A stretch of DNA of 5,460 nucleotides from a virus (Duplodnaviria; Heunggongvirae; Uroviricota; Caudoviricetes). This document shows positions 1 through 5,460 of this stretch, one piece after another. The stretch spans positions 1 through 5,460 of the IMG/VR virus record IMGVR_UViG_2531839662_000010; one strand, written 5' to 3'. The notes beneath the pieces are model-generated. The model was not told where the DNA came from and did no database searches. It saw only the letters and a list, made by a program, of their open reading frames with translations. Position 1 is the first letter of the stretch. Each line of letters starts with the position of its first letter. The translations under genes and the position numbers were made by a program.

Positions 1-600
1 TCTTTACCACTTTCTGTGTTGATTGGTTATGAAAAGAACGCTCGCACACACTCCGTGGAGCAGGTAGATCAGATTGTTGCCAGCATACAGGAGTACGGAT
101 GGACTAATCCGATCCTGATAGACGAGAACAACGTTGTAATTGCTGGTCATGGTCGAATTGCTGCGGCCACTCAGTTGGGGATGGATGACGTTCCCTGCAT
201 TGTTCTGGAAGGGCTAACGGAGAATCAGAAGAAGGCATATCGTCTGGCCGACAACCGTATTCCGCTGAATGCTGGTTGGGATGAAGAGTTGTTAAGCGCG
301 GAACTTGCAGATCTTGCGGCCGATGATTTTGCTCTGGACTCAATTGGTTTTACTCAGCGCGAACTGGATAACTTATTGAGTGCGGCGGTCTACGATGACA
401 CAGAGGGTATGGATATCCCATTTGAGAAGGATGAGGCCAAATCAGGCGTAAAAGTTCAGTACCTGTCATTTGGAGGTCATAAAATCCCGGCAACGGATGA
501 GGAAGCGGATCGTTTTGACTGCGCGGTGTCTCGTTATGTTGATGATAATGGCAGCTATATCGGATTTGTATCCGCATTGCTGGCTGGGGAGGTGTGCTGA
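1..600 (+). CDS. ParB/Srx-fold (ParB N-terminal domain) nuclease-like protein, 5'-partial; frame is open to window start, true start probably just upstream
   Basis: ORF 16..600 has no stop upstream in frame and no SD before GTG16/TTG19. Translation shows ParB-N hallmarks: NARTHS near the N-terminus, GHGR box (nt 145-156), then LADNRIPLNAGWDEELLSAELADL, a pattern typical of phage ParB-like nuclease proteins. Stop TGA 598-600. Confidence 0.75.
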   Translation, partial: SLPLSVLIGYEKNARTHSVEQVDQIVASIQEYGWTNPILIDENNVVIAGHGRIAAATQLGMDDVPCIVLEGLTENQKKAYRLADNRIPLNAGWDEELLSAELADLAADDFALDSIGFTQRELDNLLSAAVYDDTEGMDIPFEKDEAKSGVKVQYLSFGGHKIPATDEEADRFDCAVSRYVDDNGSYIGFVSALLAGEVC

Positions 601-1973
601 TGCTTCACCTGAATTACGACATAACGCACCTACGCGGCGCGGAATATAACCCGCGTTTTATCGGTGAGGATGATCTTGCGAGGCTGGCGGAAAGCGTCAG
701 GGAGCTGGGGCTTGTGAAGCCATTGATAGTGCGCGGCGATTTGCTGGTGGCGGGACACCAAAGGACGAAGGCGCTACGTAAGTTGGGAATAACGCGTGCT
801 GCGGTGTATGTGTTGCCCTGTGAAACGACGGTATACGACGAAGTACGGTTTAACCAACTGCATAACGGAACGGATTTTGATAGCGGAGATGAGCGTTGCA
901 GGGTGTCCGGTCTGGAAGATAAGCATGGTTTTGTTCAGGTATCGGCAAGCCAGATCTCAGGCAATATGCGCGCGAAAATGGCATATGTTCGAAAGAACAT
1001 AGCGGAACTGGTTATCAAGTATGGTCCGTGGGGTGGTTGTGTTGCTACTCAGTCTGGTGAGGTTATTCATTGTGCTCAGTATGCATTAGCAGCGAAGATG
1101 ACGCGCACACCGCTAACGGTGTTTGTGATCCCTGATGTTGAGAAGGAAAAATACCAAAGTTATCTGAATAAAACTTATGGTGTATTTGAGTATTCTCATC
1201 TGGAGAAAACAACATACATCCAGACGTATGCGCAGCTTATGCGGTTGCGTAATGGTGGCAGCCTGAAATCAAATCTGTATGAGTCGTTGATCCTCCCGAT
1301 CATTGCCAAGACGCCAAGAGGAATTGATTTTGGTTCGGGGCAGGGAGACTACGCGCGAATGCTCAGGGCAAAGGGATATAACCTGCATGATCTCGAGCTT
1401 TTCCGCCGTAAGGGCGCTGGAAACACTCTGGATAGGACCGCAACAAACCGGATGATTGATACGCTGGTGGATGACTTAAAAACGCGAGGGCGTTACGACT
1501 ACGTGATTTGCGATAGCGTTTTGAACTCGGTCGATAGTGTCGAGGCTGAATGGTCCGTTCTGACGGTTCTGAAAGGCCTGTGTAAAGCTGGTGGGTCAAT
1601 ATTCTTTTCTGGTCGTAGCCGTGGAGAGCTGGAAACAGTCCTGAAGCAAACACAGGCGGCGAGTTCCAAAAGCCGGCTTTATTTTATTGATCATAACGGT
1701 TTTACCGCGTTGTACCGGAAGGGGCACTGGTTTTACCAGAAGTTTCACTCTGATGAGGAAGTGAAGCAGTTGTGTCGTGTACATGGTTTCAGGATTAAGC
1801 GGTCAATATTCAACTGTAAGAGCTGGTATTTGCACGTCATTAACGATGATTCCCTTAGTTGGGCGAGTCTGGAGAAAGCTGTTCGTTTTGAGTTTGAGTT
1901 GCCGTTGCCTGGTGGTTCAACAATCGGACGATCTGATGATGTGCTGGCGGCTTTCCGGCCGTTGATTAAGTAG
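600..1973 (+). CDS. Fusion protein: N-terminal ParB/Srx-like domain + C-terminal Class I SAM-dependent methyltransferase-like domain
   Basis: ATG at 600 overlaps the upstream TGA (TGATG) with GGAGG at 588-592; the track's GTG 594 has no usable SD spacing. N-terminus YNPRF...VAGHQRTKALRKLG is ParB-like. C-terminal half has Rossmann MTase motif I IDFGSGQGD (nt 1323-1349), motif II YDYVICDSVLN (nt 1494-1526) and motif III-like LKGLCKAGGSIFF. No (D/N/S)PP(Y/F/W) motif seen. Confidence 0.7.
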   Translation: MLHLNYDITHLRGAEYNPRFIGEDDLARLAESVRELGLVKPLIVRGDLLVAGHQRTKALRKLGITRAAVYVLPCETTVYDEVRFNQLHNGTDFDSGDERCRVSGLEDKHGFVQVSASQISGNMRAKMAYVRKNIAELVIKYGPWGGCVATQSGEVIHCAQYALAAKMTRTPLTVFVIPDVEKEKYQSYLNKTYGVFEYSHLEKTTYIQTYAQLMRLRNGGSLKSNLYESLILPIIAKTPRGIDFGSGQGDYARMLRAKGYNLHDLELFRRKGAGNTLDRTATNRMIDTLVDDLKTRGRYDYVICDSVLNSVDSVEAEWSVLTVLKGLCKAGGSIFFSGRSRGELETVLKQTQAASSKSRLYFIDHNGFTALYRKGHWFYQKFHSDEEVKQLCRVHGFRIKRSIFNCKSWYLHVINDDSLSWASLEKAVRFEFELPLPGGSTIGRSDDVLAAFRPLIK

Positions 1974-1989
1974 TCTGTAGGAGGCGCTG

Positions 1990-2328
1990 GTGGCTGACAG
2001 AATTGAGATAAAGATGGATTTTTCTTCTCAGGATATTCAACGACAACTCCAGCGCCTTGAAGAACGCGAATTGCCGTTCGCAATGGCGCTTGCGGCAACC
2101 AGAACGGCAAAGGCTTCTCAGGCTGCGATTAAGAATGAAATTAATCGGGTATTTGACAGGCCCACGCCGTGGATTCAGAACTCTACTTACGTTTTGGCCG
2201 CAAAGAAGAGTGATCCTACAGCCATTGTGTATGCTCGTGAATGGGGAGGAACGCCAGCCCCTGTAACGTTGACTCCGCAAATCGAAGGTGGCCAACGACA
2301 GTACAAACGCTCAGAAGGTGCGTTGTAA
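1990..2328 (+). CDS. Hypothetical protein (112 aa), third gene of the ParB operon; weak, unverified resemblance to small phage morphogenesis proteins
   Basis: GTG start at 1990 preceded by AGGAGG (1979-1984, 5-nt spacer), 16 nt after the upstream stop. Helical Ala/Gln/Arg-rich N-terminus. Stop TAA 2326-2328 sits inside the left arm of a perfect hairpin. Confidence 0.5.
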   Translation: MADRIEIKMDFSSQDIQRQLQRLEERELPFAMALAATRTAKASQAAIKNEINRVFDRPTPWIQNSTYVLAAKKSDPTAIVYAREWGGTPAPVTLTPQIEGGQRQYKRSEGAL

Positions 2329-2380
2329 AACCCACTGAATTCAATGTTTTCCCTTTGTTTTCAGTGGGTTTTGTTATTGG
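2327..2380. terminator. Putative bidirectional intrinsic terminator: perfect 13-bp inverted repeat with 20-nt loop
   Basis: AAAACCCACTGAA (2327-2339) and its exact reverse complement TTCAGTGGGTTTT (2360-2372), followed by T-rich GTTATT. On the opposite strand the stem is also followed by a U-run. Lies between convergent genes. Confidence 0.45.
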
Positions 2381-2411
2381 TGGGGGTTACTGATTACCCT
2401 ATAAAACCCAC

Positions 2412-3403
2412 TTATGTGGATGAAATGTGGATGCCTCCTTTTAACGGATTAAGTGAAATTGCATCCTGGAGGAAATCAGGAGCGAGGTGTGCATAGGTCA
2501 TAGTTTGCTGGATCGTGGCGTGCCCCATAATTCGCTGGAGCGTAAGTATATTTCCTCCATTAATCATAAAGTGAGCTGCAAAGGTATGGCGTAGAACATG
2601 TACTGCCTGCCCTTTTGGTAGATCAGGCTTAACACTGCGAAGCACCTTGCGATATTCCTCATAATTGACGTCAAACAGAAGGCCGGATTTCTTTGTTTTG
2701 ATCTCGCTAACAACTTCATCAGAGACAGGAATAATTCGAACTTTTCCGTTTTTAGTTTTGTTAAACGTCACGCGGTTATTGATGATGTGTTCCGCGCGCA
2801 GATTTTTCGCTTCTCCCCATCTCGCACCAGTACTGAGACAAAGTAGCGTAATCCGCCGGGCATCACCGCTTACTGCATCCAGTAATTTGGCAATTTCTTC
2901 CGTGGTGAGATACGTCATTTCGGGTGATTTTCGTTTCAAAGAGGGGAGGGCGCGGAGCGGATTTTCTCCGTGAAATTCCCCGGCATTTGCCAGGAGTGTA
3001 AACATTCCTCCGAGATCCGACTCATCACGCCGAACAGTAGACTCTTTTACTCCCAAAGATTAAACGGGAGCTTCGATTAAGCGGCCATGAAACGAGCATT
3101 AATCTGGCTAACCCTTGGATCATTCATTTCTTTGATGATTTTTTTCAACCTGGTTAGAACGCCGTTAGCATATGGCTTATTGCGTCCACCCAATTCCCAC
3201 CATAACGGAAGCAGATCTGAGAGATGACGTTGCTCTGTTGGCTTTTCAAGCCATTCCTTATCGTGCATGTGGCTGAGAACATAACGCTCAAAGGCCACTG
3301 CATCTGCCTTTTTCTTAAAAATCCGCTGAATCCGACGTCCACTTCGGCCACGCGGTCTAACATCCACTTTATACCGTCCACCATCGAGTGCTTTAATTGC
3401 CAT
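2412..3403 (-). pseudogene. int: P2-type tyrosine integrase, apparently inactivated (N- and C-terminal halves in different frames, separated by stop codons)
   Basis: N-terminal part (ORF 3077..3436; probable start ATG 3401-3403 with GGAGGG SD, giving MAIKALDGGRYKVD) resembles the P2 Int N-terminus. C-terminal part (2412..3056, starting at a TTG) carries the catalytic motifs ARWGEA, HVLRHTFA and the tyrosine in MTYAHL. Frame 1 stops at 3077-3079 and frame 2 has a stop at 3060-3062; no single indel joins them. Confidence 0.6.
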
Positions 3404-3469
3404 TGGCAAGCCCTCCGGTGAAACGAGGAAAGACATTTCCAGTTTGTAAAACGTAAGAATAATAAAGGG

Positions 3470-3772
3470 TTAACCAATTTTCCTTTCGGATGGGGGTAAA
3501 TCCGTTGGTTCTTGCCCATAGTGTGCGAGAGCCGGAGCTATCTGCCCGGATTCAGGCGCAATTTTTCCAGTCATAAACCACAACGCATATTTCTCAAATC
3601 TGGGGTTGTTTAGTATTTGCTCAATTACTTCAGCATTAGGGATAGTTTTACCGCTTTCATATCTCCACAGAGCATCACGGTTTAAACCAAGCATTTTTGC
3701 TGTATCCGGGAGGCTAGTAAGTCTCTCGCTTTCACGCATGATTTTTATGCGCTCTCCAATAGTCATACGCAT
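3470..3772 (-). CDS. C: P2 C-type immunity repressor
   Basis: About 100 aa from ATG 3770-3772 with GGAG SD (the track starts at a TTG 15 nt further upstream). Contains WFMTGKIAPESGQIAPALAHYGQ, which closely matches the C-terminal half of phage P2 repressor C as recalled. Sits upstream of int on the same strand and divergent from cox. Confidence 0.8.
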   Translation of the reverse strand: MRMTIGERIKIMRESERLTSLPDTAKMLGLNRDALWRYESGKTIPNAEVIEQILNNPRFEKYALWFMTGKIAPESGQIAPALAHYGQEPTDLPPSERKIG

Positions 3773-3867
3773 GTTGCAATTCTCCAACGTCTGTATTAAT
3801 GTTTATACAAATGAGTTTGATTTGGGGCATCCGTCGCAAGAAATACCCCAAACAGGGAGATTATCAC
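3773..3867. promoter_or_regulatory. Divergent promoter/operator region of the immunity switch (Pc leftward, Pe rightward)
   Basis: 95-bp AT-rich spacer between divergent C and cox starts. Contains a 7-bp inverted repeat TTTGGGG (3821-3827) / CCCCAAA (3846-3852) and TATTAAT / TTTATAC -10-like hexamers. Exact -35/-10 boxes could not be assigned by eye. Confidence 0.45.
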
Positions 3868-4194
3868 ATGAATGAAGAACTATTGAGGGCATTGTTTAAG
3901 ATCCCAGACCCCATCACCGTTGATGAGTTTTCCCGCCGCACAGGTAAGACCGAATCAGCCGTAAGAAAGTTGGTAGAGCGTCGACTCATCCCTCTAACTA
4001 CTGAGCGCGAGGTTTTAGGCGAGGAAGGGAGTTCGCGCCGTCTTCTCATCCTTTGGAATGAGTGGCTCGAAATGGTCTATGACGCAACGAGACAGCTTCC
4101 TCCTGAGCGTAAAGATTGGCGCAACCACTGGCTTAAGAAAGCCAAGAAGCTGGCGGAAGATTTGGGATTAGGCTTTCTTAATTTTGCTGCATGA
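3868..4194 (+). CDS. cox: Cox-like excisionase/transcriptional regulator (108 aa)
   Basis: ATG 3868 with GGAG SD (3855-3858). First gene rightward of the repressor, divergent from it. GKTESAVRKLVERRLIPL resembles the P2 Cox DNA-binding region as recalled. The track's upstream start at 3799 would overlap the operator region and was not used. Confidence 0.6.
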   Translation: MNEELLRALFKIPDPITVDEFSRRTGKTESAVRKLVERRLIPLTTEREVLGEEGSSRRLLILWNEWLEMVYDATRQLPPERKDWRNHWLKKAKKLAEDLGLGFLNFAA

Positions 4195-4212
4195 GATGCA
4201 GGGAGTTTTGAT

Positions 4213-4554
4213 ATGAAACAGCAACGTAATTCACGCTTTCGTAATGGTGCTGAACGCCACGCTAACCGTTTCGCTACCAGTGCATCACGCAGCAACATCC
4301 GCTACAGCCTGAGCGAAACACACGCAACGCCGGATGGCTACCCAGTAAAACAAATCGGCGAGCACGCCTGGTTGATTGAGAAAGCTGGAATCGTGGTCCA
4401 CAAATGCCCACACAATCCGTTTACCGGAAACCGCATTTTTGCACTAAGCAGCGGCGACAATCAGTTCGGACAGGATTTCACATTGTACGAAGCACTTCGT
4501 ACAGTTGATCGTCTGCTTCGCGGACAAAGTTTTATTAAACAGGCTGATTTATAA
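4213..4554 (+). CDS. Hypothetical early-operon protein (113 aa) with strongly basic N-terminus
   Basis: ATG 4213 with GGGAG SD (4200-4204), 18 nt after the cox stop. N-terminal 30 residues are Arg/Asn/Ser-rich. Function not recognised. Confidence 0.5.
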   Translation: MKQQRNSRFRNGAERHANRFATSASRSNIRYSLSETHATPDGYPVKQIGEHAWLIEKAGIVVHKCPHNPFTGNRIFALSSGDNQFGQDFTLYEALRTVDRLLRGQSFIKQADL

Positions 4555-4564
4555 CAGGTGCTTT

Positions 4565-4843
4565 ATGACCAAAGAGCATGCACAAGGTGTATTTATCCGT
4601 TTTATTGATTTTCGCGGTGAACTGTTATTACGCGCATCGGCTATTGATGCTGTAGTTCCGGCAGAAAAAGATGTGGCCACTTACCTTTATCTGAACGGCA
4701 CGCGATTGTTTGTGGAACTTCCGTACCAGACCGTACGCGAAATCATTAACGAAGCTGAAAAGGCACGTCAGGTTAATGGCGATGAACCATATATCGAAAT
4801 TATCTGCATGGATTCAGAAGCTGAAATTCAGAAAGCAGATTAA
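4565..4843 (+). CDS. Hypothetical early-operon protein (92 aa)
   Basis: ATG 4565 is 10 nt after the previous stop, with AGGTG upstream. The track's longer version from 4505 would overlap the preceding gene by 50 nt, so the downstream start is preferred. Acidic C-terminus. Confidence 0.5.
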   Translation: MTKEHAQGVFIRFIDFRGELLLRASAIDAVVPAEKDVATYLYLNGTRLFVELPYQTVREIINEAEKARQVNGDEPYIEIICMDSEAEIQKAD

Positions 4844-4854
4844 AGGGCGTTGCG

Positions 4855-5097
4855 ATGGGCAAAGAATATAAAACTCTCATTAACAAAGCACTTGAGCGTT
4901 TTTATTTTCGCTTAAGTGCATCAGGCGTTCATGCTGAACGTGCAGCCCGTGACTCATTGACCAGGGCAATCCGGAGTCTGTATGACGTGGCTTTTTACGC
5001 TGATGATCTGGATGCACTTAACGAACTTTCCGAGCTGATCTGTGCCGCAGAATGCGGGGAACATATTGAACCGTATAAGCTGGGGAATATCGCATGA
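4855..5097 (+). CDS. Hypothetical early-operon protein (80 aa)
   Basis: ATG 4855 is 11 nt after the previous stop, with AAGGG upstream. Predicted helical. Function not recognised. Confidence 0.45.
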   Translation: MGKEYKTLINKALERFYFRLSASGVHAERAARDSLTRAIRSLYDVAFYADDLDALNELSELICAAECGEHIEPYKLGNIA

Positions 5098-5207
5098 GTA
5101 TATTTATCTCATGGCTTGTTCTGATTATTTCGGTGGCCTGTGCCATTGGGATTATGCGAATTATTAATTCAGTAAAAAAGATTGAACGCTTTTTTACTGG
5201 TGAATAA
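5094..5207 (+). CDS. Small hydrophobic peptide (37 aa) with one predicted transmembrane helix; not in the supplied ORF track
   Basis: ATG 5094 overlaps the upstream TGA as ATGA. Translation MSIFISWLVLIISVACAIGIMRIINSVKKIERFFTGE: a roughly 19-residue hydrophobic core followed by a basic tail. Stop TAA 5205-5207. Confidence 0.35.
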   Translation: MSIFISWLVLIISVACAIGIMRIINSVKKIERFFTGE

Positions 5208-5300
5208 CGATACAAATAAAACATCAAATTAAATAAGAAAACGTGAAAACCATCCGTATTAACGGAGGTATTCGCACACGCAAATAACGGAGATACAAAA

Positions 5301-5460
5301 ATGCACGCAAAAGAAGAAGGTATCATCAGAGCACTGAAAGAAATTTCAAAGATGGAAAGCGAAGTAGCGAAAAAAGCCGTGGCCAATGCTCACATGGACG
5401 TCGCAATCCACACAATGATAGCCGCAAAAGTCACGGCAGAAGCTGCCAAAATCATCGAAG
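5301..5460 (+). CDS. Hypothetical protein, 3'-partial (runs off window end), Ala/Lys-rich helical N-terminus
   Basis: ATG 5301 with GGAGA SD (5289-5293, 7-nt spacer) after a 93-bp AT-rich spacer. Open to the window end: MHAKEEGIIRALKEISKMESEVAKKAVANAHMDVAIHTMIAAKVTAEAAKIIE. Confidence 0.5.
   Translation, partial: MHAKEEGIIRALKEISKMESEVAKKAVANAHMDVAIHTMIAAKVTAEAAKIIE

Follow-up and report, generated by a model that had tools for sequence, protein, structure and literature searches.

Gene order and setting of the block

The window, by which we mean the whole stretch of 5,460 nucleotides that was analysed, carries three small genes (ORF1, ORF2 and ORF3) that lie directly behind a cox-like gene and are followed by a fourth gene for a membrane peptide. 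The part from about position 2330 to 5460 belongs to a P88-type prophage of the P2 family (genus Xuanwuvirus) and represents its integrase end. Homology to the annotated prophage of E. coli ETEC1717 starts at window position 2305, and the stretch from 4195 to 5300, which holds the four small genes that we refer to as the block, is 100% identical to that prophage. Table 1 gives the coordinates of the genes together with the evidence on which their names are based.

Table 1. Genes of the P88-type part of the window
Feature	Position	Strand	Evidence or remark
Tyrosine integrase	2412-3436	-	integrase end of P88-type prophage
C-type immunity repressor (HTH)	3470..3787	-	Pfam HTH_31 + HTH_3; PHROG 147 'transcriptional regulator' 1e-31
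Cox-like excisionase/repressor, first early-operon gene	3868..4194	+	Phage_Cox; PHROG 11919 1e-69
ORF1, 113 aa, DUF4761 family	4213..4554	+	Pfam DUF4761 233 bits
ORF2, 92 aa, PHROG 3800, no Pfam family	4565..4843	+	PHROG 3800 5e-57
ORF3, 80 aa, DUF4754 family	4855..5097	+	Pfam DUF4754 180 bits
37-aa membrane peptide, fourth block gene	5094..5207	+	ATG overlaps ORF3 stop (ATGA); GRAVY +1.25

A preliminary description of this DNA, made from the letters alone, had reported three tightly packed early genes of 113, 92 and 80 aa behind cox, with spacers of 10-18 nt and an SD each. The coordinates and the SDs confirm this arrangement. The spacers measure 18 nt between cox and ORF1, 10 nt between ORF1 and ORF2 and 11 nt between ORF2 and ORF3. 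The SD reads GGGAG for ORF1 and AAGGG for ORF3, in both cases 7 nt 5' of the ATG, and AGGTG for ORF2, 4 nt 5' of the ATG. For ORF2 the start is the ATG at 4565 in all homologues and in RefSeq, and the longer form in the list of open reading frames begins with a TTG at 4505. The count of three small genes was correct for ORF1-3, but the description had missed the fourth member of the block. The 37-aa peptide has an N-terminal transmembrane helix and a basic C-terminus, and the ATGA suggests that its translation is coupled to that of ORF3. The annotation of P88 lists it as a membrane protein, and six of the seven annotated related loci have it, the exception being the record of phage 520873, which has the same three genes and no annotation of the peptide. 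In distant relatives (loci L024, L014, L016 and L021) DUF4761 genes likewise have small transmembrane peptides as neighbours, with lengths of 38 to 57-61 aa.

We computed dN/dS pairwise over seven diverged loci, namely the window, P88, three E. coli chromosomes and the phages Chuche and 520873. At a dS of ∼0.45-0.48 for ORF1-3 we obtained ratios of 0.18 for ORF1, 0.15 for ORF2 and 0.09 for ORF3, and the 37-aa peptide showed 0.14. ORF1-3 are real genes that are kept under purifying selection. Matches that look like promoters or terminators were no commoner within the block than in shuffled sequence. Given these chance-level counts and the tight spacing, co-transcription with cox is the simplest reading, and as judged from spacing only the block is probably transcribed from the early promoter directly after cox. 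One of the sites in question is a short GC hairpin followed by AAAGTTTTAT (window 4511-4525) in the 3' end of ORF1, immediately ahead of ORF2. It resembles a terminator, but sites of this kind are no more numerous in the region than chance would predict.

Upstream of the block, the cox-like gene ends with a TGA stop at 4192-4194 and is listed in RefSeq as 'Cox family DNA-binding protein'. Its match to Pfam Phage_Cox (1.8e-5, 24.9 bits) falls slightly short of the 27.5-bit cutoff. The gene for the C-type repressor, which the RefSeq annotation of ETEC1717 also contains, indicates where the divergent switch region lies, upstream of the early operon. Between the two genes we observed an inverted repeat of 10 nt (TTTGGGGCAT, 12 nt, ATACCCCAAA; window 3821-3852), a candidate for an operator of this switch. 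Compared with the intact 990-nt integrase gene of ETEC1717, that of the window is broken: single-A insertions at 3078 and 3061 split it into the ORFs 3077-3436 (Int_N) and 2412-3056 (Phage_integrase), so that we are dealing with either a pseudogene or a sequencing error.

The left 2.3 kb of the window (1-2330) are unlike P88. They show 99.3-99.4% identity to the Yersinia phages vB_YpM_39/41/44 and to the E. coli phage vB_EcoM-613R2, and their genes include one for a ParB_N protein and one for a protein with ParB_N plus a methyltransferase. Of a 613R2 gene for 239 aa, the ORF at 1990-2328 retains just the first 112 codons. Two phage genomes therefore meet at ∼2322-2330, beside the P88-type int end. 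Rfam and tRNA scans of the window found nothing relevant.

Families and predicted folds of the encoded proteins

ORF1-3 are not new but belong to catalogued conserved hypothetical families of an extremely common prophage. Proteins identical to all three are annotated in RefSeq, and at 90% identity we counted 153 clusters for ORF1, 105 for ORF2 and 62 for ORF3. The full-length members of the families share at least 54-66% identity with the proteins of the window, and the named members of all three are almost wholly from Enterobacteriaceae. None of the sources examined offers a functional name for ORF1-3. The full-text literature on DUF4761, DUF4754, P88, Xuanwuvirus and P2-like anti-defence held no functional data on them, NCBIfam and PADLOC returned no match, and searches of the PDB with single sequences and with profiles gave chance-level matches only. 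The three genes had been described as having no recognised function, which is right in that these sources give no functional assignment, but the families themselves are catalogued (two Pfam DUFs and one PHROG) and annotated in RefSeq. No confident homologue in sequence or fold that would link ORF1-3 to any function was found.

ORF1 matches Pfam DUF4761 (PF15958) with 233.4 bits (E 3e-70), its residues 9-113 aligning to positions 1-105 of the model. Membership of DUF4761 and of DUF4754 was assigned to proteins whose whole-protein HMM score lies above the Pfam gathering score of 27 bits. ORF1 also belongs to PHROG 2492, and its counterpart in P88 is gp04. Many proteins of E. coli prophages share 90-96% identity with it, and the ETEC1717 annotation includes an identical gene. 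The preliminary description had called the N-terminus markedly basic, and this is the case: for residues 1-30 (nt 4213-4302) we calculated a pI of 12 and a net charge of +7, compared to a pI of 6.4 for the remaining protein. AlphaFold2 predicts residues 1-28 to be disordered (pLDDT < 50). For the core, approximately residues 35-105, it models five beta strands and then a C-terminal helix (pLDDT ∼83), and neither an HTH nor an RHH is seen in the model. The two parts also differ in dN/dS across the seven loci, where the tail shows 0.30 and the core 0.09.

For ORF1 only, we conducted a full HMM search with its alignment against 1.84 billion representative proteins, which yielded only 26 matches. 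They include distant homologues of 64-94 aa that do not have the basic tail, that reach up to 42 bits against Pfam DUF4761 and for which hhalign reports a Prob of 99.1% against the ORF1 alignment. Two multi-repeat matches of 610 aa and 5161 aa look spurious and were rejected, the 610-aa one being a Cys-rich repeat protein. The basic tail is missing in most of the distant homologues, and a few have unrelated N-terminal extensions. Predicted disorder, faster evolution than in the core and absence from most distant homologues place the tail outside the conserved domain, and the conserved function cannot depend on it. The conserved DUF4761 unit is the core of 60-70 aa without the basic tail. The preliminary description had read the Arg-rich N-terminus as a hint of nucleic-acid binding, which none of our results supports.

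ORF2 matches PHROG 3800 (E 4.7e-57) with its residues 1-92 on positions 1-95 of the profile and corresponds to P88 gp05. The protein is acidic with a pI of 4.6 and a charge of -7. Its AlphaFold2 model (pLDDT 85) consists of five strands, a long helix at 54-71 and two further strands. Residues 1-28 are almost invariant, with a dN/dS of 0.04 across the seven loci. For the hairpin between beta3 and beta4, residues 29-50 (window 4649-4714), we observed a dN/dS of 0.29 (dN 0.21, dS 0.73) and at least five allelic types with indels. It looks like a set of old alleles shuffled by recombination, or like a variable interaction surface.

A search of BFVD with Foldseek gave marginal matches of ORF2 (E >= 1e-3, TM 0.5-0.6) to small uncharacterised phage proteins including N4 gp27. 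Several BFVD entries named 'Flagellar and swarming motility protein' matched weakly (E 0.02-0.06, TM ∼0.5), and Pfam FlbD gave no match to ORF2 at E up to 1. We also considered ORF2 as a relative of Dhr, on account of a 'GF-I-K...DG' motif seen by eye, and rejected this after hhalign comparisons with two Dhr-like alignments had returned Probs of 0.3% and 4.3%.

All 105 ORF2 clusters are of enterobacterial origin. A scan of the GTDB species genomes detected only two loci, one in E. albertii and one in a genome labelled Vagococcus. The latter record (NZ_JBQPOM010000071.1, 'Vagococcus sp. WN89Y', with a Firmicutes label) carries the ORF2 gene and a DUF4761 protein on a 226-kb contig, both proteins are 85-90% identical to the E. 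coli copies, and the record is probably contaminated or mislabelled. ORF2 is missing from the Klebsiella, Salmonella and IMG/VR relatives that have DUF4761. With no relative found outside the P88-type phages, ORF2 appears to be limited to Xuanwuvirus and looks like a lineage-specific insertion between the members of an older DUF4761/DUF4754 pair.

Another characteristic of ORF2 concerns its 3' half. In nine of nine loci the +1 frame is open there for ∼55 codons (window 4710-4871) and stops 17 nt inside ORF3. Among the 105 clusters, 12 are frameshift fusions that join the N-terminal domain to a basic tail read in the +1 frame (...WIQKLKFRKQIKGRCDGQRI), and they use at least eight different junctions. 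Dual coding and a programmed frameshift are not supported, since dS is not depressed in this half and no slippery site is visible by eye. The canonical C-terminus of ORF2 appears to be dispensable or error-prone.

ORF3 matches Pfam DUF4754 (PF15946) over residues 1-80 of 80 with 180.4 bits (E 7e-54). It also belongs to PHROG 2549, corresponds to P88 gp06, has a pI of 5.3 and shares 98-99% identity with the cluster that is commonest in E. coli. More distant relatives occur in Klebsiella. In CP052639 the relative has 79 aa and scores 31.4 bits against the 27-bit cutoff, and its start overlaps the stop of the DUF4761 gene. Other relatives have 125-135 aa, of which the N-terminal 80 can be aligned with DUF4754 over its whole length. 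For this comparison hhalign gave a Prob of 81% (E 1e-5), compared to 0.2-4% for unrelated control pairs. Some of the distant members in Klebsiella phages have a C-terminal extension of ∼50 aa. ORF3 was also considered as a homologue of P2 B, for which the evidence was a BLASTP match of 23 bits with 29% identity over 45 aa (B residues 115-155); the hhalign comparison returned a Prob of 2% and we rejected the candidate.

Distribution of the block and occupants of the slot after cox

The block was detected at 80-100% identity in 1398 of 5426 complete E. coli genomes, and the nucleotide identity among the P88-type block loci is 88-100%. All 14 phage records with a P88-type A gene have ORF1-3, and the two sets of 14 coincide. 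In P88, ETEC1717, O103 RM8385, strain 319, FDN-11 and Chuche we observed the same order, which is cox, DUF4761, PHROG 3800, DUF4754 and the membrane peptide, upstream of the gene for the A replicase. This order is constant behind at least five different C/cox immunity regions, and the genes between the block and A are mosaic. The presence in 14 of 14 records and the fixed place behind at least five immunity types therefore speak for a core function: the block consists of core genes of the P88-like lineage and is not exchangeable accessory cargo.

Just upstream of the A replicase gene lies a gene for a protein of the Pfam 'Derepression' family, which is gp14 in P88 (5282-5512 in locus L001) and is found at 5089-5319 in locus L006. 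By its name we take this protein to resemble the epsilon antirepressor of the satellite P4, and it may be the inducer of P88-type prophages.

Homologues of DUF4761 that consist of the core only occur in other Peduoviridae genera as well. They were found in P2-like phages of Klebsiella (Reipivirus), Salmonella (Senquatrovirus SEN4 and SEN5) and Enterobacter (phiT5282H) and on IMG/VR contigs. In every locus with an examined gene order DUF4761 is the first or second gene 3' of cox, and we encountered two arrangements. In the first, which occurs in Klebsiella phages, a DUF4754 relative follows directly after DUF4761. In the second, a small transmembrane protein and a homologue of the 186 protein Fil (Pfam 3e-21) lie between DUF4761 and a conserved 90-aa gene, and a Dhr-like gene adjoins the Fil homologue. 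The DUF4761 gene of SEN5 overlaps fil. The gene orders suggest that DUF4761 and DUF4754 form an older pair that was kept after cox in several enterobacterial P2-like genera. What appears to be new here is the position of DUF4761 after cox across genera and its pairing with either DUF4754 or homologues of Fil and Dhr.

In P2 the same slot is occupied by orf78 and B, as the preliminary description had stated correctly, and in 186 by cII, fil and dhr. With tblastn we found none of orf78, B and cII in the loci that bear DUF4761. Klebsiella phage ST16-OXA48phi5.4 has a Cox that is 82% identical to P2 Cox, yet DUF4761 and DUF4754-like genes stand in the place of orf78 and B. Apart from the single 23-bit match of ORF3 to B, phmmer and BLASTP showed no resemblance of ORF1-3 to the early proteins of P2 and 186, and Pfam Fil had no match in ORF1-3 or in the P88 early genes scanned. 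The earlier statement that none of the three proteins resembles P2 B or 186 CII thus holds.

Possible functions of the block

Our leading interpretation, to which we assign a probability of only about 0.3, is that ORF1-3 are protein-binding early factors that act on the division or replication machinery of the host. Small protein-binding factors would be made at the very start of lytic growth and would target host cell division and/or DNA replication, the function class of Fil and Dhr in 186, and the outcome would be a cell prepared for A-dependent phage replication. In this model DUF4761 and DUF4754 act as partners, to which the lineage would have added the basic tail of ORF1 and the acidic ORF2. 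The block is fixed, precedes the replicase gene and stays the same when the immunity type changes, which argues for a general early lytic function and not for a part of the switch or for cargo. From the models we infer that ORF1 and ORF2 do not have classical DNA-binding folds. Their predicted folds are small and rich in beta strands with neither HTH nor RHH, ORF2 and ORF3 are acidic, and protein binders would therefore fit better than regulators. Host takeover had been named beforehand as a common role of such early proteins, and it gains some support by association as DUF4761 adjoins or overlaps the Fil and Dhr homologues in sister genera. As phage genomes are mosaic, neighbouring genes provide a weak argument, and a shared slot is no proof of shared function. 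In 186, moreover, this slot holds the regulator cII.

The slot itself can be read in a second way. DUF4761 and DUF4754 could be a replication helper that replaces P2 orf78 and B, recruiting or loading DnaB for the lagging strand during A-initiated rolling circle replication, which we consider rather unlikely. The pair fills exactly the slot of orf78 and B, in ST16-OXA48phi5.4 even behind a Cox close to that of P2, and the block is a core feature. B is not found in the DUF4761-bearing loci, and when the phage collection was searched with P2 B by tblastn no P88-type record was among the matches listed, which were only Escherichia, Yersinia, Peduovirus, Salmonella and Enterobacter records with at least 85% identity. 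The weak BLASTP match of ORF3 to B points in the same direction, but the profile comparison of DUF4754 with B does not, and ORF3 with its 80 aa has half the size of B. The phages of the SEN5 type have DUF4761 without DUF4754. Phage 186 does not have B and uses the host loader. As 186 manages without B, a substitute for B is not required.

There is also a bolder reading, which we regard as improbable. DUF4761 and DUF4754 would provide a novel two-protein early function, for example as a helicase recruiter or as a host-shutoff pair, that replaces orf78/B or CII, and the pair would serve a large share of the enterobacterial P2-like phages. ORF2 would be a lineage-specific inhibitor, held by the tail of ORF1, whose target is a protein of the host or of a defence system.

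That ORF1 is a regulator of the decision between lysis and lysogeny is very unlikely in our view. It would be an analogue of 186 CII or a co-factor of Cox, and its basic tail would serve for nucleic-acid binding, either at the switch or at attP. DUF4761 always comes first or second behind cox, where 186 has cII, and the tail has a pI of 12 with conserved Arg and His positions. However, the conserved core is predicted to be a beta-sheet with a helix and to contain no HTH or RHH, the tail is missing from most distant homologues, and phmmer, BLAST and tblastn detected no similarity of ORF1 to CII. Furthermore the block does not co-vary with the immunity type as would be expected for a component of the switch. 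An early inhibition of host immunity by one or more of the proteins, most plausibly by the acidic and lineage-specific ORF2 with its variable hairpin, is highly doubtful: the preliminary description had raised anti-defence as a role, but we found no positive evidence for it, neither homology to a characterised inhibitor nor a location in a variable accessory hotspot, and the fixed core pattern (14 of 14 P88-type phages, same position behind at least five immunity types) argues against it.

The four genes of the block are present in about one quarter of the complete E. coli genomes, including O157:H7, O103, O111, ST131 and ETEC strains. Their function would fill a gap in how common P2-like phages start lytic growth, as the slot is elsewhere held by the helicase-loading protein B of P2 and by CII of 186. 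The sharper question is thus what role the DUF4761/DUF4754 pair has behind cox. The coliphage P88 can be induced (PMC5285337), and PhiSM plates on E. coli K-12 and lysogenises it (PMC6456863). Both are viable temperate phages in which the function of the block is directly testable.

Among known systems, P2 has a two-gene slot in this position, with orf78 and B directly after cox and ahead of the A replicase gene. The proteins themselves are not homologous: DUF4754 and B are not related at the profile level and orf78 gave no match. The likeness to phage 186 is likewise one of position. Its cII, fil and dhr share the place in the operon just after the Cox/Apl gene and homologues of Fil and Dhr adjoin DUF4761 in the Senquatrovirus-type relatives, whereas CII, Fil and Dhr have neither sequence nor profile similarity to ORF1-3. 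For the predicted fold of ORF2 the matches to small beta-rich phage proteins, among them N4 gp27 and several with an FlbD/SwrD-like annotation, are marginal (E >= 1e-3, TM 0.5-0.6). The closest counterparts are the catalogued families of P88 itself. ORF1 shows no sequence difference that would set it apart from DUF4761 and P88 gp04, and ORF2 matches PHROG 3800 and P88 gp05 over the full length, though this family has no Pfam entry. ORF3 matches DUF4754 and P88 gp06 over the full length as well, and the distant Klebsiella members of its family lie directly after DUF4761.
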